Shown here one piece after another: positions 18,712 to 33,574 of a stretch of 33,574 nucleotides of DNA (positions within the stretch are counted from its first letter, which is position 1; each line of letters opens with the position of its first letter). This DNA comes from a virus. The stretch lies in UHGV virus genome UHGV-0219389. One strand, written 5' to 3'. The notes under the pieces are model-generated. The model ran no database searches and was not told the DNA's origin. It saw only the letters and a program-made list of their open reading frames with translations. The position numbers and the translations under genes were made by a program.

Positions 18712-19875
18712 ATGGGAAACCTGAATGAAACAGAAAAGTGGGAAGAAAATATCTATCAACTGGAGACATCAGATCCGGTTCTGGGTGGTGCTGACGGGAT
18801 ATCAAATCGAGCCCCCCGGCAACTGGCAAACAGGACGAAATGGCTGAAGAAAAAAACGGAGGAAGCCGCACAGTCACTGGCTGAACACGTACGTTCCCGT
18901 AACCACCCGGACGCGACACTGACAGCTAAGGGGTTCACCCAACTGAGCAGTGCCACCAACAGCACCTCTGAAACGCTGGCCGCCACACCAAAAGCCGTCA
19001 AGGCTGCATACGACCTTGCAGCCGGCAAGGCGCCCGTCAGCCACACTCACCCGTGGAGTCAGATAACGGGAGTGCCTGCTGCCTCGCTGACGGCAAAAGG
19101 CACCGTACAACTGAGCAGCGCCATCAACAGCACGTCTGAAACGCTGGCCGCCACACCGAAAGCGGTCAAGGCTGCATACGATCTGGCAAACGGAAAACAA
19201 CCGGCAGATGCCACGCTCACTGCTCTGGCAGGACTTGCCACTGCAGCAGATCGGTTGCCTTATTTTACCGGAGCAGACCGCGCAGCGCTGGCAACCCTTA
19301 CAGCTATTGGTCGCGCTATTATCGCTAAGGGCAGTATAAAAGATGTCCTCAATTACCTTGGTTTGGGGGAAGGCTCTGCATTGCCTGTTGGTGTACCGGT
19401 TCCGTGGCCCACCGCCACACCGCCAGCAGGCTGGTTAAAGTGCGACGGGCGCGCCTTTACAAAAGAACAATATCCTGTTCTGGCCAGAGTCTACCCGACC
19501 CTCCGTCTTCCCGATTTACGCGGTGAGTTTATCCGTGGATGGGACGACGGGCGCAAAGTTGATACAGGACGTAAGTTGCTGTCCGCACAAGGGGCAACGC
19601 TGTTAAGAACAGCAATGCTGGATTATTATAACCAGGACACTACGGGAACCTCGGGGATAGTCGGCATGGGATTCAACAATGAAGATTCCATTACAGACCT
19701 TCGTGAGGGCAGCTTTAAAATGCCGGACGGGACAACATTCAGCGATCCTGTCATGGCAATGTCAGACAATGGTATGCAGGCTACTATTCTGACCTCTATC
19801 AGAAGCGGGTATGCGAAGGGTATCACTGTCAGACCCCGTAGCATTGCACTTAATTACATTGTGAGGGCAGTTTAA
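18712..19875 (+). CDS. tail fiber protein (constant N-part plus invertible C-terminal variant Sv)
   Basis: ATG at 18712; internal repeats TAKG(F/T)xQLSSA(T/I)NSTSETLAATPKAVKAAYDLA; C-terminal part from about 19360 lies in the invertible segment. Confidence 0.8.
   Translation: MGNLNETEKWEENIYQLETSDPVLGGADGISNRAPRQLANRTKWLKKKTEEAAQSLAEHVRSRNHPDATLTAKGFTQLSSATNSTSETLAATPKAVKAAYDLAAGKAPVSHTHPWSQITGVPAASLTAKGTVQLSSAINSTSETLAATPKAVKAAYDLANGKQPADATLTALAGLATAADRLPYFTGADRAALATLTAIGRAIIAKGSIKDVLNYLGLGEGSALPVGVPVPWPTATPPAGWLKCDGRAFTKEQYPVLARVYPTLRLPDLRGEFIRGWDDGRKVDTGRKLLSAQGATLLRTAMLDYYNQDTTGTSGIVGMGFNNEDSITDLREGSFKMPDGTTFSDPVMAMSDNGMQATILTSIRSGYAKGITVRPRSIALNYIVRAV
18921..19200. repeat. intragenic tail-fiber repeat, 2 copies about 168 bp apart
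   Basis: Duplicated 30-aa motif in the fiber shaft. Confidence 0.7.
19346..19371. other. gix-like crossover site, left (tcctcaattacc-TT-GGTTTGGGGGAA)
   Basis: 26-bp site with inner half-site matching the Hin/Gin/Cin half-site pattern GGTTTnnnnnAA; central TT. Confidence 0.55.
19358..19437. repeat. 80-bp perfect inverted repeat, left copy
   Basis: Reverse complement identical to 20883..20962; encodes the shared peptide GLGEGSALPVGVPVPWPTATPPAGWL. Confidence 0.9.
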
Positions 19876-20489
19876 TGAGTAACACTGCAGTTCTGGATGA
19901 AAACGGTATCGCCACTGTAGCGGGCGATATCACTGTATATCACTATGACGAGGAAACCCGGGAATACACCTCATCCTCTGTGGAGTATCTCGCCCTTGGG
20001 GTGGGTACTCCGGCACATTCGTGCGCCGATGCACCGCCGGAGGCAATTTCGGGTTACGTGGTTTGCCGGACTGCCACGCTGAACGGGTGGGAGCATGTGC
20101 CTGATCACCGCGGCGAGACGGTATACAGCACGGAGAACGGTAACCCCGTTCTGATTACCCAACCGGGTGATTACCCGGCGGACACCACCACAAAACAGCC
20201 TGCCACACCATGGGATACCTGGAACGGTGAAGCGTGGGTAACTGATACTGAACGGCATAGAGCCGCAGAGCTGGAGACTGCCAGACTGCAACGCCAGAAA
20301 CGGGTGGATCAGGCGATGAAGTCCATCGACCTCATCAACCTCAAACTGCGGGCAGGTCGCAGTCTGAAACCAGAAGAAACGGCAAAACTGAACGCCGTGC
20401 TGGATTATATCGACGAGCTGAACGCACTGGATATCAGCAAGGCACCTGAAATCAGCTGGCCGGAAGCGCCACTGGCGCTTGCCGGCTGA
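19875..20489 (+). CDS. tail fiber assembly protein (Tfa/U-like)
   Basis: 204-aa ORF, start overlapping the fiber stop. Confidence 0.75.
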   Translation: MSNTAVLDENGIATVAGDITVYHYDEETREYTSSSVEYLALGVGTPAHSCADAPPEAISGYVVCRTATLNGWEHVPDHRGETVYSTENGNPVLITQPGDYPADTTTKQPATPWDTWNGEAWVTDTERHRAAELETARLQRQKRVDQAMKSIDLINLKLRAGRSLKPEETAKLNAVLDYIDELNALDISKAPEISWPEAPLALAG

Positions 20490-20495
20490 ACGGTA

Positions 20496-20962
20496 TCACG
20501 CCGCCCTCACGATATAGTTAAATGCGATATTGCGGGGGCGAGCTGATACATAAGCCCACCAGTCATATCTTTGTGCACCTTTAGAGGATGCATCAAATAT
20601 CCACTTTTTGCCATTTATGACCCCCAGTTGATTAGAGGTTAAAGCGTCACCAAATCCGTATTGTGTAGAGCCGAGCGAACTGATATCTCCGGTATCATTA
20701 TCATCAAAACCGGATACGATAGTCCCTTCCTGAAATGAAAGTAGCGCACGCCCGGTATCAACCTTGCGACCACCGTCCCATCCACGGATAAACTCACCGC
20801 GCAAATCGGGAAGACGGAGGGTCGGGTAGACTCTGGCCAGAACAGGATATTGTTCTTTGGTGAACGTAGCTCCGTTGCACTGTAACCAGCCTGCTGGCGG
20901 TGTGGCGGTGGGCCACGGAACCGGTACACCAACAGGCAATGCAGAGCCTTCCCCCAAACCAA
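20496..20962 (-). CDS. alternative tail fiber C-terminal segment (Sv'), promoterless
   Basis: Minus-strand frame whose N-terminal 26 aa equal residues of the + strand fiber at the inverted repeat, then diverges; both variants end ...NYIVRA. Confidence 0.7.
20883..20962. repeat. 80-bp perfect inverted repeat, right copy
   Basis: Reverse complement identical to 19358..19437. Confidence 0.9.
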
Positions 20963-20974
20963 CGTTTATCTCTC
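20949..20974. other. gix-like crossover site, right (TTCCCCCAAACC-AA-cgtttatctctc)
   Basis: Inner half-site TTCCCCCAAACC matches the invertase half-site pattern; central AA is the reverse complement of the left-site TT. Confidence 0.55.
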
Positions 20975-21029
20975 AAATCCTCCCCACATTATCTCAGTAC
21001 TTTAACCACTCAAAAGGGAGTATTTTTAA

Positions 21030-21601
21030 TGCTGATTGGCTACATACGTGTGTCAACAAATGACCAAAACACAGATTTGCAACGCAAAGCATTAATGTGC
21101 GCAGGATGTGAACAGATTTTTGAGGACAAAATGAGCGGAACCAAGTCGGAACGTCCAGGCCTGAAACGCGCTTTAAAGTGCCTTAAAAGAGGGGATACAT
21201 TGGTGGTCTGGAAGCTGGATCGGTTGGGTAGAAGAATGAAACACCTCATTGCTCTCACAGAAGAGCTACGCGCAAAAGGTGTCAATTTTCGCAGTCTGAC
21301 GGATTCAATCGATACCAGCACTCCGATGGGAAGGTTCTTTTTTCATATGATGGGTGCACTGGCAGAAATGGAGCGTGAACTGATAGTTGAGCGCACGCTG
21401 GCAGGACTGGCTGCTGCGCGAGCACAAGGGAGAGTTGGAGGACGTCGCCCGAAACTGACGAAGGAGCAGCATGAGCAGATCGCAAGATTGCTCCAGAAAG
21501 GGTATGACAGAAAGCGGCTGGCAATTATCTATGATATTGGACTGTCAACGATCTACCGCTACCACCCTGTTGGGACTGTCATAACGCAACCTGAAATGTA
21601 A
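21030..21601 (+). CDS. gin: DNA invertase (Gin/Pin/Cin/Hin family serine recombinase)
   Basis: N-terminal MLIGYIRVSTNDQNTDLQ catalytic-serine motif and C-terminal HTH; start at ATG 21030 inside track ORF 20900..21601. Confidence 0.85.
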
Positions 21602-21679
21602 TTCTTTTTCAAATAATGAAACGCCGCGTGGATGCCATTTATCGCACAAGATAGAGTGCATTTATCGCGCGGCGCATCA
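21602..21679. repeat. putative Mu-type right end with repeated transposase-binding-like motifs
   Basis: Direct repeats CATTTATCGC at 21636 and 21659, GAAACGCC motif at 21618, sequence ending ...GCGCGGCGCATCA; resembles the Mu right end from memory. Confidence 0.45.
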
Positions 21680-21741
21680 TACAGCCCTTTAGCCTCCAGT
21701 TCTTCCGCTTTGCTGTCTTTAATCATGCTGTACCTCACTGC

Positions 21742-22167
21742 TTAAAACGGTATTCCGTCCCCGTACGGATCATCGTGCTGGCCTGTCTGTTGTTTTGCCC
21801 TGTTCAGTGCGTCAGTAGCCTGGCCCTGCTGGCCTTTTTTGCCGCCCGGTCGCGCCGTTCGCGCACTGATTACGCTGTCTGCGATGACCTGCCAGCCCTG
21901 CCGCGTTTCGCCGTTCTGGCCTGTCCACTGGCTTACCTGCATGTTACCCGCCACGCTCACCAGTTCGCCTTTCTGGTGTTTTGCCAGTGCGTCGGCCTGT
22001 CTGCCAAACGCCAGGACGGATAACCACATCGTCGCCGTTCCGTCATCTGCCTGGCTGCATGGCAGGGGAACCGCCATACTCGCCATCGCCATTTGTGTTC
22101 CCTTGCTGGTGGTCTTTAACTGCGGGTCAGCCACCAGCCGCCCGTAAGCCGCTATCTGTGCTGTCAT
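21742..22167 (-). CDS. SSB-like single-stranded DNA-binding protein
   Basis: 141 aa with Gly/Gln-rich linker and C-terminal acidic tail ending DGIPF, as in SSB (DDDIPF). Confidence 0.55.
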   Translation of the reverse strand: MTAQIAAYGRLVADPQLKTTSKGTQMAMASMAVPLPCSQADDGTATMWLSVLAFGRQADALAKHQKGELVSVAGNMQVSQWTGQNGETRQGWQVIADSVISARTARPGGKKGQQGQATDALNRAKQQTGQHDDPYGDGIPF

Positions 22168-22227
22168 GCTGTCTGTTCTCCGGTTTTAACGTTGATTGTT
22201 ACGCTTGTTTACACCCTTATGGTGAAA

Positions 22228-22376
22228 TTCTGCGGGTTATAATCGCACTTTTGCGGGTTATAACTGCCGTTTTGCGGGTTATTTTGGGTATTTTACGGGT
22301 TACGATTTTCCTGCCATTCCTTTAATAATCATATGGATACTGATTTATCCACAGAAATAACCCGCATAACCCGCAA
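22228..22376. repeat. iteron array (candidate replication origin)
   Basis: Four direct copies of (T)TTTGCGGGTTAT spaced exactly 21 bp (22231, 22252, 22273, 22294), an AT-rich spacer, then two inverted copies ATAACCCGCA (22357, 22366). Confidence 0.7.
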
Positions 22377-22403
22377 AATTTTCACCCTACACGCGAGAAA
22401 AAA

Positions 22404-24530
22404 TTAATCTTCTTCGCTTTCTGGCTGGAACATCAGCACGTAAAAAACATGCTGCTTCCCCCCAATTTTGCCGAGCGCCTTTTTCTTGTAACGGCGATCG
22501 TTACCCGCTTCCAGCATTCCGGCAGCACTCAACGCGCGGGCAAAGTGAGACGGATTAAATCCCTGTGCTATCTCACCCTCAAATACATGCGGGAACGTGT
22601 AAAAACGGAACTCGTCATCTTCGTTTCTGATACTCCCCTTTCTGTATCCGGCAAGCTCTTTAATCGGTAAATCACGCTCGTCAGAGTTGGGCCAGGGAAG
22701 GTATCTGCTGAATCCGAACGACGCTAAAAAAGCCTCTGCCTGTTCAACCATCTGTTTAAACTCCCTGTTACCCGTGCCGAACTCCTTCACCCAGGCATTA
22801 AAATTATGCTGTATGGCATCGCGGCATTCCTGCTCATCCCAGCCAGTAACATGACCTGAAAGCACAAGCGCGGCCTCCAGTATGGCAAATCGCTCCCCCA
22901 CACGGTGAACCTGTTCGCCGTAGCTCTCCGGTATCAGGTTGCGCCACCGCTCACGGCATGTCCTTACCGTGTCCTTTGCCTCCTGCTGGTGTTCTGCCAG
23001 CCATTTAACCCACTCACGACCCGCCGCCCCGTGATTTGCTGTCCAGGCATCCTTTAACGCGTCTGCGTGCGCCTTTCCGGTGCTGTATTCGTGAAATTGC
23101 GTGGCTTTTTCCATCGGAACGTTAAGCAGGCGGACAAGCTGCCCCGCTTTGACTTTTATCCCCTCCGTTTTGAGGAATGTCTCAACGTCCATTTCTCCGG
23201 TGCTGATTGCCACCGTTCGCCAGTGTTTTATCTCCCTGTTGCCGCCGTCCTTTGCCCCCTGTAATTTCCCGGAACCGTTAAACAGCGTATAGGCTGACGT
23301 GGACACCTCCCGCGCGTTTCCGGCCTGGCCTATTTCATCCAGGGGTAAAAGCCCGTCATTGTGTGCCTCTGCTTCGTTGGCGATACCTAACGCTGTGCCG
23401 TACCAGGTCAGCCGCTGCGCGTCCGGCTCTCCCCATAAACTTGATGCGATGTTCTGCGTTGTGGTCTTACCTGCCGATGACTGTTCGAAAAGATGTACCC
23501 CGAAGCCGTCAGCGCCCACCAGCCCGATTAATGGTGCGGATAACGATACCGCCACCCCCAGCATCATGGACGGATTACCACCAGCCAGTCGCGCCACGGT
23601 GTCGCGCCAGCCCTCCGCCGTTCCTGCCACGGAATAGCCATTAACAGCAGCAGTTTTTCCGGTAAACAGGACTGGCTTTTCGCAATCACCAATGACCGAA
23701 CCGTCCGGCATGATGTACGCGCCAAAATGCCAGCCCGTTGTTGTGCTTAACTGCCATTCCTCATGGCTTCCGCTTAACTGCATCCAGTCAGCCAGGATTG
23801 CCCTGTATTTACCGTTGGTTGTTACGTTCAGTCCGTGGTCTTTCAGCAGCCGCCAGCCGTCACGGTCGCCAATGCCACCGCACGGAACCGCCATTGTGAT
23901 GACTTCATGATTTGCTGGCTTTTTCCAGCGCATCACGCGGTAATGTTCTTTGCCGATTGTCCCCGTTCCCAGCAGTTCAAGCGGGGAACATAACCACGTC
24001 TCAGGCCGGATAATTTCGCCTGACTGCTTGTCCACTTTTGGCGTAACCCAGAAAACACCATCGGCGCGGCTTTCAACGCGGGGCTTTAATTCATCATCAC
24101 CCGGGCTTTCTGTGATTTTTTTCTTTAAGGGCAACACCAGACTTTCCCCGCGCTCGTATTCGTCTTTGAGGCGAGGCAACTGGTCGGATAAATCCGCCGG
24201 GCTGGTGTCAGTTATCCCCGCGTATTCGTATACGGTCTTCACGCCAGCCACAGCCAGCAACGTGACGATCTGTGTAAGGCTACGTTCAGTGATGTGCCCT
24301 GCGCGGTAAATACGCACACACTGACGGCTATCATCAATAATTTGATAACCGGTAATATCTTTCAGGTGTTCATCTGACAGAACGACAGGCGGCACATTGT
24401 CGGCGGCAATATGCTTACCTGCCCATTCCTGCCACTCTTTCGCATGGCTCCACGCATCACTACCCGCAAAGATGATAACCTCCGTCATTTTGTCGGCTGG
24501 CTGGTGCTTTAAGTTTGGTGCGCGCTTCAT
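22404..24530 (-). CDS. primase-helicase-like replication protein (P-loop NTPase)
   Basis: 708 aa with P-loop-like FEQSSAGKTT; placed beside the iterons as replication initiators are in P4-like and PICI-like elements. Confidence 0.55.
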   Translation of the reverse strand: MKRAPNLKHQPADKMTEVIIFAGSDAWSHAKEWQEWAGKHIAADNVPPVVLSDEHLKDITGYQIIDDSRQCVRIYRAGHITERSLTQIVTLLAVAGVKTVYEYAGITDTSPADLSDQLPRLKDEYERGESLVLPLKKKITESPGDDELKPRVESRADGVFWVTPKVDKQSGEIIRPETWLCSPLELLGTGTIGKEHYRVMRWKKPANHEVITMAVPCGGIGDRDGWRLLKDHGLNVTTNGKYRAILADWMQLSGSHEEWQLSTTTGWHFGAYIMPDGSVIGDCEKPVLFTGKTAAVNGYSVAGTAEGWRDTVARLAGGNPSMMLGVAVSLSAPLIGLVGADGFGVHLFEQSSAGKTTTQNIASSLWGEPDAQRLTWYGTALGIANEAEAHNDGLLPLDEIGQAGNAREVSTSAYTLFNGSGKLQGAKDGGNREIKHWRTVAISTGEMDVETFLKTEGIKVKAGQLVRLLNVPMEKATQFHEYSTGKAHADALKDAWTANHGAAGREWVKWLAEHQQEAKDTVRTCRERWRNLIPESYGEQVHRVGERFAILEAALVLSGHVTGWDEQECRDAIQHNFNAWVKEFGTGNREFKQMVEQAEAFLASFGFSRYLPWPNSDERDLPIKELAGYRKGSIRNEDDEFRFYTFPHVFEGEIAQGFNPSHFARALSAAGMLEAGNDRRYKKKALGKIGGKQHVFYVLMFQPESEED

Positions 24531-24841
24531 TTTGCCTTTCTCCGTTCACGAATAATTTCACGTACTGCCTTAATGCGTTCCATACCTGTAACGCGCATGA
24601 TTCTGTCGATGTCGCTTAAGTTCGCTGGTGGTGCTTTGCTTACCAGGGTGAATTCACTCTCAAAACGCATATGTGACGACACGCAGGGATGCGCATAACC
24701 TTCGCGGATATAGGTCACGCGAAAATCATCGACGGTTTTAATCGTTATCGTGCTGCCGTATTTATCCTGGAAAATATCGCCGGGGCGGATTTCAGGCCGA
24801 GCGGAGCCGCTGGCAGTAAAGCCAGAATTTTTCTTTTTCAT
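24527..24841 (-). CDS. hypothetical protein, coupled to the primase gene
   Basis: 104-aa ORF overlapping the primase start by 4 bp. Confidence 0.45.
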   Translation of the reverse strand: MKKKNSGFTASGSARPEIRPGDIFQDKYGSTITIKTVDDFRVTYIREGYAHPCVSSHMRFESEFTLVSKAPPANLSDIDRIMRVTGMERIKAVREIIRERRKAK

Positions 24842-24847
24842 GTTTTT

Positions 24848-25066
24848 TTACTCCAGAGGCCGCTTTTTAGCGAAGAGTTCAATATCAGATGTCAGAGAAA
24901 CCTGTGTATTTGCCAGGTCTAACAACAAAGAAATAAGAATTTCCTCTCTGCTATCTGATTTATCGGTGCTAAGGCTGTTCATCCACATATTGACGACTTC
25001 CCTGATTTTTTTCGCAGAGTGCATGGCTTCAAATGCCAGGTCTTCAATATCATGTTTATTTCGCAT
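24848..25066 (-). CDS. hypothetical small protein
   Basis: Internal ATG of track ORF 24848..25132, chosen to limit overlap with the upstream gene. Confidence 0.35.
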   Translation of the reverse strand: MRNKHDIEDLAFEAMHSAKKIREVVNMWMNSLSTDKSDSREEILISLLLDLANTQVSLTSDIELFAKKRPLE

Positions 25067-25268
25067 AATCGCCCCCGCGTAACTGGTCTGCACTAACACC
25101 CGATTTAGTGAGCATTTCAGAAAATCCCGCAAGAGTGCTGATAAATTCGTTTTCCATTAAACGGCACTGGCATTTAACCCGGCCTTTTTCCAGATACACC
25201 AGTACGCACCCCGTATAATCTGACGGCACATTCAGCACTACAGATAAGTGCGCTTCATTATTATTCAT
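25056..25268 (-). CDS. hypothetical small protein
   Basis: 70-aa ORF in the same operon. Confidence 0.35.
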   Translation of the reverse strand: MNNNEAHLSVVLNVPSDYTGCVLVYLEKGRVKCQCRLMENEFISTLAGFSEMLTKSGVSADQLRGGDYAK

Positions 25269-25497
25269 GGCTCACCACCTCCATATCAGCCATGATAATT
25301 TTGCTGGCCTCATTCAGTGCCATATCAGCACTAAGTTGCATTACAGCCAGTGAATGAGGAACGAAAGCCCCGGCATATTCTGTTTCGCTGGTGGCGTGCT
25401 TATGCGCCTTGTCTGCGATAACAGAAATATCAATCAGCGCGTGCATCAGCGTTTTGATGGCTTCGGCGGCTGCGTCCGGACGGGTGTTATTGCACAT
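25261..25497 (-). CDS. hypothetical small protein
   Basis: 78-aa ORF overlapping its neighbours at both ends. Confidence 0.35.
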   Translation of the reverse strand: MCNNTRPDAAAEAIKTLMHALIDISVIADKAHKHATSETEYAGAFVPHSLAVMQLSADMALNEASKIIMADMEVVSHE

Positions 25498-25693
25498 GGA
25501 GCACCCCCTGACGAATACGGGCGGCGAATACCATCACGCAGCCAGCCGGGGATTGCTGGCGTGCTTCCTGTTCGCTGGTGGCCACGATGTGAATCACGCG
25601 CGGTTGTGCGGTGCTCAGGGCGATAAAACGCCAGATGTATTTATTCAGGTTGTGCGAGTCCCGCCCTTGCGGGTGTGTGGTATGATTTCTCAT
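25487..25693 (-). CDS. hypothetical small protein, first gene of the leftward operon
   Basis: 68-aa ORF from ATG 25693 with GAGG RBS; this is the C-terminal part of the 301-aa track ORF, whose upstream part crosses operator palindromes. Confidence 0.4.
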   Translation of the reverse strand: MRNHTTHPQGRDSHNLNKYIWRFIALSTAQPRVIHIVATSEQEARQQSPAGCVMVFAARIRQGVLHVQ

Positions 25694-25770
25694 AGCTACC
25701 TCGATACTCTTGCTATCGTTGGTGGTTAGACGCCCTGCATGTGTTGCGAGCACTGCGGGGCGTTGCTTAA

Positions 25771-25826
25771 TTTGAGTGACAAAACTCAAACTGTGCGCAC
25801 AGATTAAAATCATGTGTGCGCACATG
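25771..25826. promoter_or_regulatory. divergent promoter/operator region with palindromes
   Basis: TTTGAGT-N6-ACTCAAA at 25771-25790; perfect palindrome TGTGCGCACA at 25792-25801 and again at 25815-25824; half-site TGTGCGC near 25862. Confidence 0.6.
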
Positions 25827-25898
25827 TCAATACTTAACATCTCATTTTTTTTGCTGTATTGTGTGCGCCCATAAAGTCCATTTAAGTGAGGTGCATCA

Positions 25899-26096
25899 AT
25901 GTCTAGCGGTAACACAAACAACAAATCAGCAAAGAAAAATATTCGATTCCCACATGAGCTTATAGATGGGATTGATGCCAGCGTTGAACAAGAAAAATTA
26001 ACTAATCCTAGTGCTAATTTTTCCGCATGGGTCTTAGATGCCTGTGGACGCAAATTAAAATATGAACAGCGCCGGAAGGCCAAAGAATCAGAATAA
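25899..26096 (+). CDS. ribbon-helix-helix (Arc/Mnt-like) putative repressor
   Basis: 65 aa; segment KNIRFPHELIDGIDASVEQEKLTNPSANFSAWVLDAC has the beta-strand/helix/helix pattern of Arc (RWPREVLDLVRKVAEENGRSVNSEIYQRV, from memory). Confidence 0.5.
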   Translation: MSSGNTNNKSAKKNIRFPHELIDGIDASVEQEKLTNPSANFSAWVLDACGRKLKYEQRRKAKESE

Positions 26097-26138
26097 TCAC
26101 TATCAGCGCCGTGGTGTGAGTAACTACGGCGCATTGCT

Positions 26139-26327
26139 ATGCAGGACAACACAATGACCGATAAAGAATTGACCAAAACATTATCACCGACACGGAAAAG
26201 ACGGCGCAGAAAGATAGAGCATGAATCAGAAAGATTCGCACCTTGTTCGTTTGCTCTTGAGAAATTCCTTAAAGAGCGCAGGAAAAAGCTCTCGTTGCAA
26301 ACCTTGGAACGAACCAAATCTGACTGA
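26139..26327 (+). CDS. hypothetical basic protein
   Basis: 62-aa Lys/Arg-rich ORF downstream of the RHH gene; weak RBS. Confidence 0.25.
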   Translation: MQDNTMTDKELTKTLSPTRKRRRRKIEHESERFAPCSFALEKFLKERRKKLSLQTLERTKSD

Positions 26328-26460
26328 TCACATTGCCCACCAGCCGCAAATGTGGCATTGTTGGTGATGCTTTTGTTTTCCCTTGTTCCCACTGGCTACC
26401 CTTTTGCGGTCGCCTTTGTTTTGCCTGTTATCCGGCAATAGTGGCGCTTCGTCACCTGTC

Positions 26461-26549
26461 TGATATAATTCCACTGCTTATATTCATTTTTTGCGCAGTA
26501 GGTTAATTGTTCGCAAGGGCGCTCCGGCAACGGGGCGCTTTTTGTTTTT
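26461..26549 (+). ncRNA. candidate small RNA (extended -10 promoter to intrinsic terminator, about 70 nt)
   Basis: TGaTATAAT at 26461-26469; stem-loop TTGCG..CGCAA; terminator GCGCTCCG-GCAA-CGGGGCGC + TTTTTGTTTTT at 26519-26549; no ORF with RBS between. Confidence 0.35.
26519..26549 (+). terminator. intrinsic terminator (8-bp stem, GCAA tetraloop, U-tract)
   Basis: GCGCTCCG / CGGGGCGC stem with one G-U pair, followed by TTTTTGTTTTT. Confidence 0.6.
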
Positions 26550-26707
26550 ACCCACCAGCACAATAAAAATCTTCATTTTCCATTTTTGTAAAATTTCATG
26601 CTTTCCGGACGACTGGTCATATGTCATTTTTTAGCAGAAGATTTTGCCTTGCTGGTGGGTAGCTTCCCGGTCAACACGATGTACCGTATAATCAACACCG
26701 CGTGTGG

Positions 26708-27292
26708 TTACTGAATACGCTCACCAAAGTAAAACTCAGGCTGGTATTCACGTATCAGCCTTTTTTCTTCTTCCTCCAGCTCACGCTTTTTGCGCTTACA
26801 TGCCTGTAGCTCCCTCCCCTTCTCGCTGGCACTTATCTGATATTGCTCTTTGCGGCGGGAAAAATCCTGTAATGCGCCCCACGGGATACCATAAGCCCCC
26901 GTTTTTCTGATACCCGGTATCACATTTCTGAATACCCAGTTACTGAAACGATGGGCGAACGTGCCAGGAGTAGCAGCTTTGCGACTTCTGGCAATCAGCT
27001 TGTAAAAGCCAGATTCAGAAACGACGCTATGATTTGGATTTCCGCGAATACCGTAAGTTAAAGTTACGGTATTACTTTCATCATCATCCAGAGCTTGCAA
27101 CGCCATGCGTGAATTGGATAATTCAAGCGCCGCACAAACATCCTTTGCAACAAACCACGGATCGCCGTTCAGATACACCACACGAACATCCACGCCATCA
27201 AAACGTAGAACGACCTGATCACGAATATCGCAGAATTTTTTCACTGGACGTGCATTCCCCTTGCCCATCATGGCAATATTTTTATTCATCAC
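26708..27292 (-). CDS. Bro-N domain antirepressor-like protein
   Basis: N-terminal motif DGDPWFVAKDVCAALEL characteristic of Bro-N; 194 aa; GAGG RBS. Confidence 0.65.
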   Translation of the reverse strand: MMNKNIAMMGKGNARPVKKFCDIRDQVVLRFDGVDVRVVYLNGDPWFVAKDVCAALELSNSRMALQALDDDESNTVTLTYGIRGNPNHSVVSESGFYKLIARSRKAATPGTFAHRFSNWVFRNVIPGIRKTGAYGIPWGALQDFSRRKEQYQISASEKGRELQACKRKKRELEEEEKRLIREYQPEFYFGERIQ

Positions 27293-27308
27293 TTTCTACC
27301 TCACATAC

Positions 27309-27336
27309 AAAAAACCCCGCATTGCGTGGTGCGGGG
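27309..27336 (-). terminator. intrinsic terminator after the AlpA-like gene
   Basis: Minus-strand stem CCCCGCA / TGCGGGG followed by TTTTTT. Confidence 0.55.
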
Positions 27337-27346
27337 TTGTCGGTAA

Positions 27347-27625
27347 TTACTTATTGGCGTTTTTGTATGGGCTGTTTACTTCCTTTACTCCTGGCGGATG
27401 CATAACCCACCAGAGCACATCAGAGAGCAACCAGGAAACAGACACTTTCCCTAAATGAGCACGAGCAGGAAATGCTCCCTCCTGTTCAAGTACCCAACGT
27501 CTGCTTCTTGAAAGCCCGGTACGATTGGCACACTCATGTTCGCGTATACGGCGATCATACGGTTCGCCATGCTCTTTCAGAATCTGAATGCGTTCTTCGG
27601 GTGTAGGATAAATAAATTTTTGCAT
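27347..27625 (-). CDS. AlpA-family HTH regulator
   Basis: Start at internal ATG 27625 (MQKF...) with AGGTGA RBS; TGLSRS..W HTH pattern. Confidence 0.55.
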   Translation of the reverse strand: MQKFIYPTPEERIQILKEHGEPYDRRIREHECANRTGLSRSRRWVLEQEGAFPARAHLGKVSVSWLLSDVLWWVMHPPGVKEVNSPYKNANK

Positions 27626-27637
27626 AAAAATATCACC

Positions 27638-27665
27638 TATAAAAAAACCCGCCAAAAGACGGGTT
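27638..27665 (-). terminator. intrinsic terminator-like hairpin between the two AlpA-like genes
   Basis: Minus-strand stem AACCCG / CGGGTT followed by a 7-nt U-run. Confidence 0.45.
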
Positions 27666-27688
27666 GATTATATCTCATTTAATTTAGC

Positions 27689-27910
27689 TCAGGGTTTCCA
27701 TTCACCCTTTACCCATTCCAGCACCTCAGATAAGCGCCAGACTTTTGTTTGTGGGCCAATACATATTTTTCGTGGAAATTTTCCTTCCTTTTCAAGTAAC
27801 GATCTGTGTCTCCTGCCAAGAGCGGTTAACCATGCACATTCATCTTCCTTAATCATCCTGTCGATTGTTTTATCATTTTCAAGTTCTTCACGCGTAACTA
27901 TTTGAATCAT
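27689..27910 (-). CDS. excisionase/AlpA-like HTH protein
   Basis: Small ORF overlapping the integrase 3' end; AlpA-like pattern (ECAWLTALGRRHRSLLEKEGKFP). Confidence 0.5.
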   Translation of the reverse strand: MIQIVTREELENDKTIDRMIKEDECAWLTALGRRHRSLLEKEGKFPRKICIGPQTKVWRLSEVLEWVKGEWKP

Positions 27911-29111
27911 TACCGTCACCACTAATTAGCTTATTCAGATAGTCATACCACCAATTCATAGCTTCTTTTTTTCTGTCCATATACTGGCTTCTGTTATAAA
28001 CCCCGGCAACACCGCCTAATGTGTGCCCAAGCAACTGTTCAACCACATTATGTTCAAAACCATGATCACTTAGCTTTGTGGCAAACACTCTTCGCATATC
28101 ATGCGCCGTCCATTTCTCCGAGTGTTTCATCCTTTTCCATGTCTTACCGATAGTTACGCTTGCCGTACACTGACGCATATCAAACCCAATCACATTTTCT
28201 TTGTTACCTGTTATTTTTTTTAACGTAACTAACCAGTTAAACATGCCATCAGGAATCGGTCTGATTATTTCCCTGCCATTTTTGCTATGATCAGCGGGAA
28301 CGCGCCATAATTTCTTATCAAAATCCCACTCTCCCCAGGAGGACAGTAATACTTCTGACAGTCGACAACCAAAAACTACCAGGAAACGTAAAATAATTCG
28401 GTTTTCATATGATAATTCGTGATTGTCATAATCAGTATTAATACTTCGCCATAAATCTCTGATTTCATCATCTGTTAAAACCCTGCTTCTTCGCGCAGAC
28501 TTTTTTCCCACATCACAGACCTCAAGATCATCAATTTCATGACTAATCGCGTATTTTCTTACCCGACAAAATTTAAGCGCCTGTTTTGATATACGCAACA
28601 AAGCTCCGGCCTGTACAGGTGCTACTTTTTTTATTTTGTCAAAACACTTGATCCACATAGATATAGAGCAATCACTAAGTGGTACATGACCAATCACCGG
28701 ATAAATATGTTTACCAAAGCACTGCCTGATATGTTCTGCTCCCCTACGCTTATCCATTGCATAATTATCAAGCCAGTATTCAAGTGCCTCACGAACGGTA
28801 ACAGGTTGCAAGGTGGCTTCCCGTTCAATTTTTATCTGAATCCGTGGATCTCTGCCCTCCGCAAGCCAGGTTCGACACTGATCGCGCATCTCTCTCGCTG
28901 ATTTGAGACTCAGATCAGGATATTTCCCAAGTGTCAGCCAGATGGGCGCGGTTCCCCTTCCCGCCAGTCTGTAAAAGAAAACAAAACTAACACATCCGTA
29001 TTTACTGACCCGTACCGAAAGCCCGTTACCATCAGCGATGGTTTCCTGCCTCTCACTCCTGCGCCCAAGCAGGGAACGAAGTTTTTTATCGCTCAGTTTG
29101 TTTAGCGCCAT
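27888..29111 (-). CDS. int: tyrosine integrase (P4-type)
   Basis: N-terminal MALNKLSDKK...GNGLSVRVSKYG resembles P4-family integrase; C-terminal HDMRR...LLGH...Y catalytic region; start taken at ATG 29111. Confidence 0.85.
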   Translation of the reverse strand: MALNKLSDKKLRSLLGRRSERQETIADGNGLSVRVSKYGCVSFVFFYRLAGRGTAPIWLTLGKYPDLSLKSAREMRDQCRTWLAEGRDPRIQIKIEREATLQPVTVREALEYWLDNYAMDKRRGAEHIRQCFGKHIYPVIGHVPLSDCSISMWIKCFDKIKKVAPVQAGALLRISKQALKFCRVRKYAISHEIDDLEVCDVGKKSARRSRVLTDDEIRDLWRSINTDYDNHELSYENRIILRFLVVFGCRLSEVLLSSWGEWDFDKKLWRVPADHSKNGREIIRPIPDGMFNWLVTLKKITGNKENVIGFDMRQCTASVTIGKTWKRMKHSEKWTAHDMRRVFATKLSDHGFEHNVVEQLLGHTLGGVAGVYNRSQYMDRKKEAMNWWYDYLNKLISGDGNDSNSYA

Positions 29112-29116
29112 GTGAT

Positions 29117-30310
29117 TTATAACCCGTTTTTGCAATACACAGTGCAATACACAAATGATGAAAACAGCCAGAACCTTCCAGAAAAAACAAAAACGACGAA
29201 CAAGAAAAAATCTTTTTCTTTCATTTGGTTACTAAAAAAATCAGGACAGGTCGCACTGTTGTTACGGCGTGATGTTACTTTCTTGGTAAAAAAATTCACC
29301 CGCGCAGAGACCTGCTCCTTCGCTTTTTTCGCCAGACGACGCAGATCATCCCAGCGTTTACAGATGCCCAGGCCAGGATTCGCTTTCTGCCAGACCGTTT
29401 CATCAAACGGATCATCTCCCTCATCAAGCGTGTAAATGATCGCAAAGTAAGAGTCGTCTTTTACAGCGCCCTCCACGTCGCTGTTATAGCCTCGCAATAC
29501 CTTGATGGCGTAATCACGCTGCTCGTAACAAATCCCTTCCTTGTTAAAGCCAGCCGTGGTGATACCAAATAACAGGGACTGCAGACGGGCACCGGTTGCC
29601 GTTTCCAGAACGTCCCACACGTCGCGGGTTTTATGTGCATGCAGCTCATCAATAATGGCGCAGTGGATGTTCAGACCGTCCAGGTTGTTTGCATCCGAGG
29701 AAAGCGGTTCAAATTTTGATGCGCTCTGCTCCTGGTAAATCGCCAGCTTGTTGAAATCAAACAACCGCCCGAGTGTCGACCGGGCTTTTCTGACCATATT
29801 TTTGGCGTCTTCAAACACGATTCTGGCCTGGTCAAGCGTGGTTGCGGCTGAATACACCTCAGCTCCGCCTTCACTATCTGCCCCCGTCATATACAGACCG
29901 ATACCCGATGACAGGGTTGATTTTGCGTTTTTACGGGCAACTTCGTTGTATGCTGTCCGGAACCGGCGCACCATCACCGGGCGTCCACTGCCATCGCTGC
30001 GCATGACAACTTCCCCGGTTTCTTCATTCACCAGCGGAATGACAAAACCAAAAATATTAATGAGGATAAACACATGCCAGTCCATCAACTCAATGGGCTG
30101 ACCTGCCAGCGCCCCTTTCACATGGGGTACAAATTTGTAGAAATTAAGGATGTGCTGTGCACGAGGTTCACTGAAATAAATCCCCCGCTCTTCGCCGTAC
30201 TTCAGATCATCAAGAAAACGCTGGCAGGCCAGACGGACAAATTCGCCAGCAACAATTTCTCCTGCAACAACACGTTCGGCGTAGCGGATCCCGTCAGCCA
30301 CTTTTGCCAT
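29117..30310 (-). pseudogene. terminase large subunit, 3'-truncated (ATPase domain only)
   Basis: terL-like sequence through about residue 340 (..WQKANPGLG..), then low-complexity tail from AT-rich DNA abutting the integrase start. Confidence 0.65.
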
Positions 30311-30792
30311 CAGTCTCTCGCTTTTAAAAGCTCTGCCAGCGGATCAACATCATCCGGTCCGGCGGTATTTACTTTCGCCCGGCTTGCCGGTGACATACCA
30401 AACTCTGCAAGCATCGCCCGAATCCGCTTCCAGGCATCAGCCTTCATCGCAGCAGCCGGGTGTGCCTTGATCAGCACATCGCCATTCTGCGTTTTCGTGC
30501 GGTAGGTATAACCCTCAACATCGAGTATTTCGCAGTGATGCCGGTATTCGGTGTAGGCTTCCACCAGTAACTCGAGCGCACGTGCATCGAGCTGAGAAAT
30601 GATCCCTTCCGCATTCAGCTCTTCCGCCATTCGCCTGAACCAGTACTTCCCCTGCGCCCCTAAATGTTGCGGAATTTTAGGGAGACCTTTTTCATCCTTT
30701 TTAGCGGTTTTTTTGAGGTCTTTAACTGGCCGCTTTGAGGGGTTGCCTCGTATCAAATGCAGGCGTGGCGGGATTTTCGGGGGTCCAGACAT
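30310..30792 (-). CDS. terminase small subunit (P27-family-like)
   Basis: 160-aa ORF with stop overlapping the terL start; position between HNH and terL. Confidence 0.65.
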   Translation of the reverse strand: MSGPPKIPPRLHLIRGNPSKRPVKDLKKTAKKDEKGLPKIPQHLGAQGKYWFRRMAEELNAEGIISQLDARALELLVEAYTEYRHHCEILDVEGYTYRTKTQNGDVLIKAHPAAAMKADAWKRIRAMLAEFGMSPASRAKVNTAGPDDVDPLAELLKARD

Positions 30793-30939
30793 AATCGGTT
30801 TTACCTATCAATCATTTAATCACATTCCAAAAAAAAGTTTTCGAACCTGCGGCGATGCGAGGAAAGGTCAGGCGGCGGTACTGAGCAGCCAGGGTTGCAG
30901 AGATTTGACCTGCCCCTCCCCTACAGATGGGAACTGTTA

Positions 30940-31290
30940 TCAATTGATGCGTTCGCGCGCTGTTTTTGCTTTATGACAGGGCCAGCACAGACTCTGCAGG
31001 TTACTGTCTGCATCCGTGCCACCATGAGCTTTCGGAATGATGTGGTCCACAGTTCTGGCTTCAACGGCTCTCCCATTGCGCAGGCAGTTCTGACACAGAT
31101 GATTATCACGCTTCAGTATGCGCGCACGTATGGCATCCCATTTCGAGCCATAGCCACGCTGGTGGCGGCTCAGTCCGCGTTGATGCTGTACCCATCCTTC
31201 GCCACGATGTTTATCGCAGTAACCAGAACTGTCTGTGGTTGTACCTGCACATCCACGCTTACGGCAGGCGCGTGGGATTCGTGGGGGCAT
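30940..31290 (-). CDS. HNH endonuclease
   Basis: Motif CQNCLRNGR...DHIIPKAHGG...NLQSLCWPCH; start at ATG 31290 (MPPRIP) with GGAG RBS. Confidence 0.8.
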   Translation of the reverse strand: MPPRIPRACRKRGCAGTTTDSSGYCDKHRGEGWVQHQRGLSRHQRGYGSKWDAIRARILKRDNHLCQNCLRNGRAVEARTVDHIIPKAHGGTDADSNLQSLCWPCHKAKTARERIN

Positions 31291-31410
31291 ATGTACTCCA
31301 ATGAAGAAGCCACCGACATAGCCTCCTCCATTCATAGTGAAACTATTTTCATCTACCCAGTAATGAATTCTTTGTAGAGTTGTGATCAATACAACTCACT
31401 AATGGAGAGG

Positions 31411-31445
31411 CTTGTCCAACACGTTGGACAAGTTTCCTGTTTGAT
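31411..31445 (+). terminator. 10-bp inverted repeat (CTTGTCCAAC-ac-GTTGGACAAG) followed by a T-rich run
   Basis: Perfect arms at 31411-31432, then tttcctgtttgattt. Confidence 0.35.
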
Positions 31446-31815
31446 TTACTGGACACTATAGAAGGACAGAATGCCTTCATCACTCGAATAACATCAATTA
31501 AGGAGGTTCAACATGTTTCATTCCACAAATCATCAGGCTGTAATTATGGCTGCATCAGCTTGTGCCACAGACCTTTTCCGCTTCACTTTGAGCCTGATTC
31601 ATTTCTACCTGACCGGCTCGCCTCTATCTTTTTAATCCCCGCTTTATCCAAATTGCATTGCCAGAATGCCGACAACAGACTGACATTCAAATCCTGACTA
31701 CCTCCAATAGGCTGAGCATCCACCTATATAGTTTTAATTTTCATCAATCCATTTAACTATCGTTTAATTGTTGTCACATAGGATTCTGCCATTTTTAACA
31801 ATGCAGGATAATAAG

Positions 31816-32109
31816 ATGAAAAAAATGTTGTTTTCTGCCGCTCTGGCAATGCTTATTACAGGATGTGCTCAACAGACGTTTACTGTTGGAAACAAACCGA
31901 CAGCAGTAACACCAAAGGAAACCATCACCCATCATTTCTTCGTTTCGGGAATTGGACAGGAGAAAACTGTTGATGCAGCCAAAATTTGTGGCGGCGCAGA
32001 AAATGTTGTTAAAACAGAAACCCAGCAAACATTCGTAAATGGATTTCTCGGTTTTATTACTTTAGGCATTTATACTCCACTGGAAGCGCGTGTGTATTGC
32101 TCACAATAA
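31816..32109 (+). CDS. bor: Bor outer-membrane lipoprotein
   Basis: 97 aa; MKKMLFSAALAMLITGCAQQTFTV... with lipobox ITGC, nearly identical to lambda Bor as remembered; opposite strand to Rz as in lambda. Confidence 0.85.
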   Translation: MKKMLFSAALAMLITGCAQQTFTVGNKPTAVTPKETITHHFFVSGIGQEKTVDAAKICGGAENVVKTETQQTFVNGFLGFITLGIYTPLEARVYCSQ

Positions 32110-32140
32110 TTGCATGAGTTGCCCATCGATATGGGCAGCT

Positions 32141-32602
32141 CTATCTGCACTGCTCATTAATATACTTCTGGGTTCCTTCCAGTTGTTTTTGCATAGTGAT
32201 CAGCCTCTCTCTGAGGGTGAAATAATCCCGTTCAGCGGTGTCTGCCAGTCGGGGGCTGGTTGCATTATCCACGCCGGAGGCGGTGGTGGCTTCACGCACT
32301 GACTGACAGACTGCTTTGATGTGCAACCGACGACGACCAGCGGCAACATCAGCGCGCAGAGTTTCATTTTCAGCTTTCGCATTGGCTAATTCTCTCGAGT
32401 ACTTTGCATCGAGTGCAGCAACATCACGCTGACGCTGCTGCATGTCAGCGATGGTGGCGATCGCCTGCTTCAGCTCACTGACTTTTTTATCACGCTGTTC
32501 TTTGTAGGCGATGGCGTTATCACGGTAATGATTGACCGCCCACGACAGGCAGACGATGATGCAGATAACCAAAGCATAAATAATCGCGGCGACTCTGCTC
32601 AC
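32141..32602 (-). CDS. Rz: i-spanin Rz
   Basis: N-terminal transmembrane segment and coiled-coil periplasmic domain, near-identical to lambda Rz as remembered; probable GTG start at 32602 overlapping the endolysin stop. Confidence 0.8.
32200..32382 (-). CDS. Rz1: o-spanin Rz1 lipoprotein, embedded in Rz in the +1 frame
   Basis: 60 aa, lipobox VVGC, proline-rich KPPPPPAW, ends ..SPSERG, lying entirely inside Rz. Confidence 0.85.
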
Positions 32603-33132
32603 TGCTCTATCCCCCAACAGGCTAATGCGCTTTCCTGGTCACGACGAATAACCTGTCCATAGCAGTTATTTGAACGTATGCGGCAATCGCGCCCACCATC
32701 TTTTATCCACCAGCGAATCGCCTCGCATGCGCCCTTACGATCACCGGCATTCAGCCGCTTATAAAACGTCGACGGGAAACACTTACCGGGGCCAATGTTA
32801 TAGGGACAGAATGACGCTATACCCGCTTTTTGTGGTTCGGTCAGTGGTACTTTAATATTGCGCTCCACCCATGCCAGCGCCTTATCACGCTCAATGGCGT
32901 TGACCTGGTCGCATTTTTCCTTCGACAGTTTCATACCGGGAAAAACGGGTTTTCCATCCACCATCGTGGCACCCCGACAGATGGTCCAGATGCCGGACCC
33001 ATCGCGGTATGCCGTTGTGTGGTTACCTTCTTTTTCATCCAGAAACTGGTCGAGAATATCAGGCGCGGGCGCACCGACGGCAATCAGTGCCAGAACGGCA
33101 GCCGACAGGCCGTATCTGATTTTTGCGTTCAT
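32599..33132 (-). CDS. endolysin (lysozyme), SAR-type
   Basis: 177 aa with N-terminal weakly hydrophobic segment [16 protein letters not shown]; resembles prophage RrrQ/RrrD-type lysozymes from memory. Confidence 0.8.
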
Positions 33133-33195
33133 GGATATTTATCAGGATTTATCGGTTTCTGCCCACGGACAGGTTTATCTGTTCCGGTCAGTGAC

Positions 33196-33546
33196 TTAAG
33201 GTTGTGATTCCGGAGGAGTCTTCAGAGAACCAGTAATTCTTCCCGGTAGCTTTCCTTTGTAGGTTATCCATACATTCTGCGCCTCTAAAATTACGGGGCG
33301 CTTTTCCGGCGACTGCTCATCCCCTTCACATAACCCGGCAGCAACATCCAGGAAGACCTGTCTGATGCTCATTCTGGCTGCTGCCTCATAAAACTCCAGC
33401 GCGGCACCTTCAACACGGTCCAGCGAGATGTCCAGGTCAAAAATTTCACCGTCAAAGCGTTTTTTGTCCCGTAACGCTAAAGTTACCGTAACTTTATTCT
33501 CAAAATTGCGGATCCCTTTCACAATCAGTTCATAGTTTTGAGTCAT
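33196..33546 (-). CDS. DUF1327 (YdfR-like) phage protein
   Basis: 116-aa ORF immediately upstream of the endolysin; placement between holin and lysozyme as in Qin-type cassettes (from memory). Confidence 0.4.
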   Translation of the reverse strand: MTQNYELIVKGIRNFENKVTVTLALRDKKRFDGEIFDLDISLDRVEGAALEFYEAAARMSIRQVFLDVAAGLCEGDEQSPEKRPVILEAQNVWITYKGKLPGRITGSLKTPPESQP

Positions 33547-33574
33547 TGAATTACTCTCCCCGTGCAGCCTTACG

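Follow-up and report, generated by a model that had tools for sequence, protein, structure and literature searches.

Two successive and mechanistically different insertions into a lambdoid prophage of the HK97-head type in Escherichia coli very probably account for the arrangement described here: a PICI of the helper-embedded kind (HE-PICI) would have entered the prophage first, and a Mu-like phage would then have entered the satellite. The analysed DNA (hereafter the window) is a stretch of 33,574 nucleotides from the virus genome UHGV-0219389, apparently a metagenome assembly, and its features are collected in Table 1. A first-pass annotation had proposed the same three layers, a Mu-like phage in a PICI-type satellite in a lambdoid terL, and all three boundaries were located no more than a few bases from the places it had given.

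Table 1. Features of the window, with strand and the evidence for each assignment
Feature	Position	Strand	Evidence or remark
Mu-like (BcepMu-type) transposable prophage, right arm	1-21679	+	PhiKM identity, Pfam, shared terminus
Gin/Pin-type serine DNA invertase of the Mu-like prophage	21029-21601	+	Pfam Resolvase and HTH_7; 190-aa gene call in relatives
perC-family regulator, 5' stub (codons 1-16, MIKDSKAEELEAKGLY)	21680-21726	-	Alignment with intact 98-aa PerC of NRZ96606
SSB, single-strand DNA-binding protein, complete (replication zone)	21742-22167	-	Pfam SSB; equal length in NRZ96606 and 042
Primase/replicase, DUF927 protein, 708 aa	22404-24530	-	Pfam DUF927, E = 5e-46
DUF4222 protein (replication zone)	24527-24841	-	Pfam DUF4222
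Small satellite genes: hypothetical proteins, Icd-like gene, pseudogene remnant	24848-26700	-	Gene calls/annotation in relatives
DUF3950/YlcI gene, divergent	25899-26096	+	Pfam DUF3950
Bro-N domain protein (Bro zone)	26708-27292	-	Pfam Bro-N
Two AlpA-family HTH genes, putative excisionase/regulators	27347-27625 and 27689-27922	-	Pfam Phage_AlpA, both
Tyrosine integrase, 408 aa from ATG at 29114	27888-29114	-	Pfam Arm-DNA-bind_3 and Phage_integrase
Doubled TGTATTGC motif, int-proximal copy (window + strand GCAATACAcagtGCAATACA)	29131-29154	-	Spacing to core
Crossover/identity core TTGGTAA (ttaccaa on gene strand)	29283-29289		terL codons F341-T342-K343
Large-terminase gene terL, 5' part, codons 1-343 of about 584	29283-30310	-	Pfam TerL_ATPase complete
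Rest of the lambdoid prophage in the window	30310-33574	-	Pfam; annotation of colinear prophages in NRZ96606 and 042
terS, P27 family	30310-30792	-	Pfam Terminase_4
HNH endonuclease	30940-31389	-	Pfam HNH
bor/iss lipoprotein	31768-32109	+	
Rz-type lysis protein, lysozyme, YdfR-family gene	within 30310-33574		Lambdoid prophage

The outermost layer is the lambdoid prophage, and its colinear counterparts in E. coli NRZ96606 and 042 continue to a holin, a Q antiterminator, cI/cro-type regulators and an HK97-type head module. Its terL gene had been described as cut at about 29290; homology to intact terL starts exactly at 29283 (base 198 of the query 29086-29486), which places the cut at the 7-bp core. 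The 397-codon ORF at 29117-30310 is composed of terL codons 1-343 and 54 unrelated read-through codons from satellite DNA, and it retains the whole TerL_ATPase domain and only positions 2-68 of the 286 of TerL_nuclease (Pfam). The occupied terL/int junction is present in 36 complete E. coli genomes. RefSeq pipelines annotate terL/int fusions or over-long integrases at this place.

Three checks proposed in the first-pass annotation, namely a comparison with strains lacking the insertion, a search for the terL 3' remainder beyond the element and a search for direct repeats at the junctions, all gave, in relatives, the outcome expected of an insertion. The two refuting conditions it had named, a terL remainder missing from the genome and an integrase module native to the lambdoid prophage, likewise turned out in favour of the reading wherever they could be assessed. 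In 905 complete E. coli genomes terL runs uninterrupted across the core (at least 95% identity) with no integrase nearby. Moreover, E. coli NRZ96606 and 042 possess the satellite intact (15,280 bp in NRZ96606), with the 3' part of terL directly past its far end and, in NRZ96606, the TTGGTAA direct repeat at both element junctions. When the two halves of terL are joined in silico at the core, they form a single ORF of 584 codons reading ...RVNFFTKHMNVWVTAESAW.... The attR end is seen in these two relatives, and the capsid-forming module, late zone and second att site of the present genome would lie beyond the window. For the present genome, whose own distal half falls outside the window, insertion and not deletion is supported only through comparison with relatives.

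The interrupted site corresponds to one already catalogued, the HE-PICI site group A:Terminase_1:246 with the att identity block ttaccaa and a 141-nt attL (Tommasini, Mageeney & Williams 2023, NAR Genom Bioinform 5:lqad036, PMC10111431). The satellite agrees with this group in target gene and codon, in the ttaccaa block, in the 141-nt attL (29184-29324 is an exact match to the published attL of A_Terminase_1_246 HE-PICIs) and in the spacing of the doubled motif. In HE-PICI attP sites this motif, tgTGTATTGCantgTGTATTGCa, occurs twice, 81 +/- 2 and 132 +/- 2 nt away from the attP centre (PMC10111431). In the window, 132-134 nt separate the core centre (29286) from the nearer edge of the int-proximal copy; in NRZ96606 a second copy (7178-7198) is found some 79-81 nt away from the other core.

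The gene order of the satellite fits the same group. In HE-PICIs, int, alpA and primase point the same way as the late gene that is split, and the zones follow the order integration, Bro, replication and late (PMC10111431). In the integrase-proximal half of the satellite (21680-29282), int, both alpA genes, Bro-N, DUF4222, the DUF927 primase and SSB are all on the minus strand in that order, with int, alpA and primase sharing the orientation of the interrupted terL, so that the integration, Bro and replication zones have the HE-PICI order. The integrase belongs to the same family as that of 11capE, the prototype HE-PICI in E. coli NRG857c, and shares 50% identity with it along its entire length (396 aligned residues, E = 3e-144). 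Judged by its sequence features, that is the split late gene, the att block, the motif, the orientation and the zone order, the satellite is a helper-embedded PICI, and its integrase can be placed in the HE-PICI clade, a placement that follows from the identity of its att site with those of catalogued members. The un-split relatives are also of the same size class, with 15,280 bp in NRZ96606 against elements listed as '15' and '16'. The satellite of the window differs from HE-PICIs in that a Mu-like prophage interrupts its perC-family gene, and no A_Terminase_1_246 element of 50-54 kb is present in the tables of the HE-PICI paper (PMC10111431).

The integrase-primase region had also been called visibly more AT-rich than the Mu-like arm. 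This applies to the int/Bro half (G+C of 0.446 in 24531-29282, from the small genes to int, versus 0.558 in 1-21679); the ssb-primase part has a G+C of 0.536 and the lambdoid part one of 0.494.

The late zones of the NRZ96606 and 042 satellites encode a major capsid protein, a prohead protease, a portal, a head-tail connector, an HNH protein, TerS and TerL (RefSeq annotation), and these satellites are about 15 kb long and without tail or lysis genes. The satellite TerL has only 32% identity to the helper TerL. With int, alpA and pri-rep besides this late set of their own, the un-split relatives share the composition of the cf-PICIs (prototype EcCIEDL933; Alqurainy et al., bioRxiv 10.1101/2022.09.08.507074), and hence look like capsid-forming PICIs that would need only helper tails. 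The satellite nevertheless differs from cf-PICIs in sitting within a prophage gene: chromosomal attB sites are described for cf-PICIs, and 'attachment sites never occupied by prophages' was a search criterion in that study (bioRxiv 10.1101/2022.09.08.507074).

Some features are also shared with phage P4, such as an integrase of the broad P4/PICI tyrosine group, a large primase-type replication protein, an Icd-like gene and Bro-network genes. In contrast to P4, the helper is lambdoid and not P2-like, and the site is a prophage gene and not a tRNA gene. None of sid, psu and delta occurs in the annotated late zone of NRZ96606 and 042, which contains HK97-type head genes instead, and an Rfam scan of 21000-33574 (E <= 0.1) gave no match to a C4/isrK-type immunity RNA. 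A P4-like identity was rejected on the grounds of the helper, the missing genes and the RNA; hence, of the earlier label 'P4/PICI-like', the PICI part stands, in the form of a helper-embedded element whose relatives have a capsid-forming late zone, and the P4 part does not.

The innermost layer is a Mu-like prophage, of which the window holds the right arm. The arm encodes terL (its 5' end is lost at the window edge), a Mu portal, Mu F- and G-like genes, head, sheath, tube, tape measure, a P2-type baseplate, a tail fibre, an invertible segment and a Gin-type invertase, and both Portal_Mu and Phage_Mu_F are detected by Pfam. Escherichia phage PhiKM (Bcepmuvirus) is 98.7% identical to it at the nucleotide level over 90% of the arm length. 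PhiKM, whose record is a partial genome of at least 34.7 kb, has transposase, Gam, GemA and Mor/C genes; the early region of the present element lies beyond the window, and transposase, Gam, GemA and Mor genes are seen only in the relatives PhiKM and AF3. Homology to the element ends at base 21679 in about 1,900 complete E. coli genomes, among which this end adjoins unrelated host genes (such as flgJ, yeiB, dgcQ and a fimbrial usher). The end sequence of the right arm is ...GCGCATCA at 21679, the terminus in the homology comparison (query base 1680 = 21679) is ...CGCGCGGCGCATCA, and the left end would read TGATCAGACATGAG.... In strain AF3 the element splits dgcQ and sits between copies of a 5/6-bp duplication, ACTGG(T). 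With many unrelated sites, TG...CA termini, a short target duplication (AF3) and Mu-type head genes, this is a Mu-like transposable phage. It resembles BcepMu-type phages such as PhiKM in late-region identity, in the Mu-type portal and F protein, in the Gin-type invertase with an invertible fibre segment, and in its termini, its many insertion loci and its short target duplication; only its target is unusual, namely a satellite lodged in turn within a prophage.

From 21680 onwards the DNA is colinear with uninterrupted satellites, beginning inside a perC-family gene. The earlier reading that a distal satellite gene is cut by the Mu-like end at 21679 is thus borne out, with the cut falling after codon 16: the product departs from intact PerC after MIKDSKAEELEAKGLY and runs into Mu-like DNA. 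The gene cut is perC and not SSB, because the adjacent SSB gene is complete. The same Mu/satellite junction was found in four metagenome contigs, OBZP01000067.1 and three ENA contigs located via the 55-aa perC'-Mu fusion ORF, and at least two ENA samples, as well as OBZP01000067.1, yielded it in independent assemblies. In one of the junction-bearing contigs the invertible segment is flipped, and hence the contigs are not copies of one assembly. The Mu/satellite and terL/int junctions are neither chance nor assembly artefacts, because the former recurs in these four further contigs and the latter in the 36 complete genomes.

Replicative transposition can cause adjacent deletion or inversion. 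The satellite may therefore have inserted as described and then suffered such a Mu-caused event, in which the late zone and the 3' part of terL were lost or displaced and terL became permanently dead. We regard this as unlikely, although it is the likeliest of the alternatives. It would agree with the failure to find the distal half: an exact scan of genome contigs for the right (Mu/satellite) junction gave 0 matches, as did a scan of metagenome contigs for the predicted left junction, CCGGTACAG[N]TGATCAGACATGAGATAAATG. The Mu-like terL is also broken off at the identical base in contig k119_5968 and in the window, and none of the four contigs extends to the Mu-like left end. Many HE-PICI helpers, moreover, look truncated (Tommasini et al., PMC10111431). 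However, the visible junction is clean and colinear with NRZ96606 from the first base past the Mu end, with no loss, simple insertions of the same element with target duplication are known elsewhere (AF3), and a repeat is a simpler explanation of the shared assembly break.

A further alternative is that the integrase-to-primase module is native to the lambdoid prophage, or that terL was truncated by deletion or rearrangement and not by site-specific insertion. Only one junction is visible in the window, terL simply stops there, and the fused or over-long RefSeq gene calls would accord with a resident module. Nevertheless, this seems very improbable and is refuted as the origin of the junction, whose sequence is the published attL: the elements of NRZ96606 and 042 have two ends that bear an identical 7-bp core, the 3' part of terL comes directly after, and the integrase module is not the lambdoid prophage's own, because the same terL is uninterrupted in the 905 genomes. 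Least probable of all is a chimeric metagenome assembly of a separately located prophage and satellite, since the junction falls exactly at the terminal CA of the element, outside shared sequence, and recurs in the independent assemblies noted above (one with the flipped segment), even though the closest sources are short-read metagenome assemblies and no isolate genome has the junction, with neither it nor the nest occurring among complete E. coli genomes.

Under the preferred reading of two successive insertions, a HE-PICI of about 15 kb would have entered terL at codons 341-343, at TTACCAA, by means of its own tyrosine integrase; the satellite lies oriented as the late operon. The published regulatory model is based on experiments with 11capE, which sits in a capsid gene, and in which no virions were recovered (PMC10111431). 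By analogy with that model, a full helper TerL would be impossible before satellite excision, since the split removes the nuclease domain; replication of the helper and its late transcription would be expected to pass passively into the satellite, and excision at the core, driven by Int and AlpA, would then restore terL exactly. The packaging gene had earlier been called inactivated; terL is indeed split, but 'reversibly split' would be the fitting description according to the HE-PICI model.

In the second event, the Mu-like phage appears to have transposed into the perC-family gene, between the replication and late zones and in the opposite orientation, destroying perC. A whole prophage would now separate the packaging genes of the satellite from its int-to-ssb half, and the att-bounded unit would be enlarged to roughly 50 kb or more, exceeding a satellite-sized capsid; the satellite was therefore probably immobilised. 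Excision that repairs terL is still formally possible, because int and alpA look intact. Two more far-reaching outcomes, which we consider improbable, are that the Mu-like insertion made a stable lock of what had been a reversible 'regulated gene integrity' switch, the enlarged satellite being no longer able to depart productively, keeping terL split and fixing the lambdoid prophage as a defective resident, or that the integrase still excises the satellite and Mu together as a unit of about 50 kb. If the lock were real, persistence or selection of the triple nest would explain why it recurs in several independent human-gut datasets; if the unit were still excised by the satellite integrase, the Mu-like phage would have a second, site-specific route of movement.

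The nest is composed wholly of already described parts and implies no new mechanism, because this type of satellite, with its site, att sequence and proposed regulation, was described in 2023 (PMC10111431) and the Mu-like insertion is ordinary transposition. It provides an independent confirmation, at the sequence level, of the published HE-PICI site in terL. It is also relevant for annotation, as prophage and satellite finders and RefSeq gene calls mishandle such nests, for instance as terL/int fusions and over-long integrases. It represents a clean natural case of hyper-parasitism, with a transposable phage in a satellite in a helper prophage.

By its ORFs, base composition and Pfam domains, the 33.6-kb window falls into three blocks, and the G+C content of the satellite block is itself uneven (0.446 over its int/Bro half, 0.536 over the part with primase and ssb). 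The first-pass annotation had read this region as a Mu-like prophage inside a satellite inside the large terminase gene (terL) of a lambdoid prophage, and this three-layer nest is borne out: both junctions are exact, and uninterrupted counterparts were found for the satellite and for terL.

Features of the window, arranged by block
Feature	Position	Strand	Basis or composition
Block A, assigned to the right arm of a Mu-like prophage	1-21679	genes +	G+C 0.558
Terminase gene, 5' end beyond window edge	block A	+	
Mu-type portal (PF06074), Mu F-like protein, G-like morphogenesis protein	block A	+	Pfam
Head genes, sheath, tube, 983-aa tape measure	block A	+	
261-nt unit, two tandem copies 92% matching, inside tape-measure gene	12676-13210		
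P2-type baseplate, tail fibres, Gin-type serine invertase	block A	+	
Gin-type invertible tail-fibre segment; flanking inverted repeats of 229 nt, 90% complementary	19355-20965		
Block B, satellite	21680-29282	all main genes -	ORFs, Pfam, G+C
16-codon gene stub, SSB	block B, Mu-proximal	-	Pfam/ORFs
DUF927 primase/replicase, 708 aa	block B	-	Pfam
Variable stretch between Bro and replication zones	25487-26700		
301-codon GTG ORF	25487-26392		
DUF4222, small genes, Bro-N	block B	-	Pfam/ORFs
Two AlpA genes	block B	-	Pfam
Tyrosine integrase, 408 aa, with arm-binding domain	block B	-	Pfam
Integrase side of the junction prone to gene-caller artefacts	27888-29147		
397-codon terL' ORF	29117-30310		
Core heptamer TTGGTAA	29283-29289		
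Block C, lambdoid prophage	29283-33574	-	G+C 0.494
Large terminase, first 343 codons	block C	-	Pfam
P27-family small terminase, HNH endonuclease	block C	-	Pfam
Rz-type, lysozyme, YdfR-family genes	block C	-	
bor/iss-type serum-resistance lipoprotein gene	31768-32109	+	

A 2.4-kb query across the edge of blocks A and B was compared with complete E. coli genomes. About 1,900 of them match only through query base 1680, window position 21679 (...GCGCATCA), and the genes adjoining the element there are unrelated (flgJ, yeiB, dgcQ and a fimbrial usher, among others). For instance, dgcQ is split in strain AF3 by the same element with a 100% identical right end, and this copy has ACTGG(T) on either side and the termini TGAT...ATCA. 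Moreover, Escherichia phage PhiKM (Bcepmuvirus), whose gene content includes transposase, Gam, GemA and Mor/C, matches block A with 98.7% identity. The fixed end at varied loci, the AF3 flanking repeat and the PhiKM identity show that block A belongs to a Mu-like transposable prophage and forms its right arm, and this layer is ordinary transposition. The tail-fibre segment is flipped in a metagenome contig from ERZ27239686 relative to the window, with colinear flanks (99.8% identical); hence the adjacent invertase appears to be active in this lineage.

From 21680 on, the window is colinear with uninterrupted elements of other E. coli and enters them within a perC-family regulator gene, of which a 16-codon stub (MIKDSKAEELEAKGLY) precedes the Mu-like DNA; the adjoining SSB gene is intact. 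The closest sources are the metagenome contigs ERZ27239686 k119_5968 (99.85% identical), ERZ918653 and OBZP01000067.1. By calculation, the 41.9-kb contig ena:ERZ27239686:k119_5968 ends at the same Mu-like base as window base 1, 21,679 nt from the right end and inside the Mu-like terL. This shared assembly break could stem from strain variation there or from another, related copy of the Mu-like element.

Loss of the distal half of the satellite and terL by a Mu-associated deletion seems unlikely. The window begins inside the Mu-like prophage, so that the left end, target duplication, late zone, second att and terL 3' part lie outside it; a scan of metagenome contigs for the predicted Mu left junction gave no match, and the nest was found neither among complete E. 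coli genomes nor in a genome-contig scan, all of which would be in line with such a loss. That the assembly is a chimera is very unlikely, since the junction coincides with the CA at the end of the element and several independent assemblies contain it.

At the other edge, a 401-nt query centred on the boundary of blocks B and C matches 36 complete genomes in full length, while about 900 others match only from base 198 (window 29283), in genes annotated 'terminase large subunit'. The boundary lies within the core heptamer, codons F341-T342-K343 of terL. By Pfam, the split gene still encodes a full ATPase domain, but its match to the nuclease domain is confined to positions 2-68 of 286. An 800-nt empty-site sequence, taken from the in-silico join described below, occurs in one piece (at least 95% identity) in 905 complete genomes of E. 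coli, EC958, JJ1886 and APEC O1 among them. The complete, un-split satellite was found in E. coli NRZ96606 (L001) and 042 (L007), in the order terS, terL 5' part, int, two alpA, Bro-N, small genes, DUF4222, DUF927, SSB and PerC, followed by 2-3 small genes, major capsid protein, prohead protease, portal, connector, HNH, terS and a complete terL. In these strains the remainder of terL sought by the first-pass annotation lies directly beyond it (annotated 'endonuclease subunit, missing N-terminus'), and next come the portal, protease, capsid, connector and tail genes that belong to the prophage. The expected direct repeats are likewise present, since the 15,280-bp element of L001 is bounded by two TTGGTAA cores. 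When the distal flank from L001 and the proximal flank from the window are fused in silico at the core, an uninterrupted 584-codon ORF results (...RVNFFTKHMNVWVTAESAWMD...). Un-split relatives, restored ORF and empty sites together show that terL is broken by site-specific integration at this junction. That the integrase module is part of the lambdoid prophage is ruled out by the 905 uninterrupted terL genomes and the two-ended element in relatives.

The terL' ORF carries a 54-codon read-through tail, a gene-caller artefact. RefSeq has an artefact at the same junction, a 470-aa 'integrase' overlapping the terL pseudogene (L001 20980-22392), and published tables mark this kind of problem as 'reannotate terminase/int fusion' (PMC10111431). 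The bor/iss-type gene lies between HNH and the lysis genes; its L001 counterpart is annotated Iss and adjoins an IS2 that is absent from the window.

Helper-embedded PICIs (HE-PICIs), to which the literature leads via de Sousa et al., point the same way as the late operon and consist of four zones, for integration, Bro, replication and late genes (PMC10111431). Its tables hold many E. coli elements of the type Eco...15/16.A_Terminase_1_246 with att identity 'ttaccaa' (PMC10111431), the reverse complement of the window core, and their aligned 141-nt attL matches window 29184-29324 (- strand) exactly. The HE-PICI-specific doubled motif tgTGTATTGCantgTGTATTGCa, reported 132 +/- 2 and 81 +/- 2 nt from the attP centre (PMC10111431), has copies at window 29131-29154 (about 132-134 nt from the core centre) and L001 7178-7198 (about 79-81 nt from the distal core). 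Moreover, the integrase of the prototype 11capE (NRG857c) is 50% identical to that of the window over its full length (E = 3e-144). The satellite shows every HE-PICI feature open to sequence comparison, and, down to an identical attL, it is one of the catalogued elements of a kind described in 2023. The HE-PICI tables (PMC10111431) do not contain the triple nest, which is hence a new instance, though not a new kind. The P4 side of the earlier 'P4/PICI-like' label is rejected: an Rfam scan of 21000-33574 (E <= 0.1) gave no C4/isrK RNA, the annotated late zones of the relatives hold no sid, psu or delta genes, and the helper is lambdoid. By RefSeq annotation, the un-split relatives resemble capsid-forming PICIs (cf-PICIs): they encode a capsid, protease, portal, connector, HNH, terS and terL of their own, without tails or lysis genes. 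Their TerL is a homologue of the helper TerL, at only 32% identity (E = 1e-90; L001 7619-9280 against rebuilt helper terL). At the att-core position the satellite TerL reads ...LTKRFNIW... and the helper TerL ...FTKHMNVW..., so that self-integration into the satellite's own terL looks unlikely. The 301-codon GTG ORF is unlikely to be a true gene; in relatives the annotation of this stretch shows no more than a fragment of a pseudogene and a divergent DUF3950/YlcI gene.

The satellite leaves terL without its nuclease domain and brings no sequence that would replace it; terL would be made whole again by an exact crossover at the core, as in the in-silico join. The published HE-PICI model rests on att-site kinetics in a different HE-PICI at a capsid-gene site (PMC10111431). 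Under this model, the helper-satellite composite would excise and replicate upon induction, late transcription would run from terS and terL' into int and the remaining satellite, and the satellite would excise next; only afterwards could the helper express its restored late gene. In this subgroup, where the satellite has head and packaging genes of its own, it would need only tails and would delay the helper's packaging enzyme. The Mu-like insertion, which lies in the opposite orientation, would be a later event at no particular target sequence. It destroys perC; a whole prophage would then stand between int-to-ssb and the late zone, and the unit between the att sites would measure roughly 50 kb or more. 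We infer that the Mu-split satellite is no longer packageable as such. Excision with repair of terL stays a formal possibility, given that int and the two alpA genes are intact.
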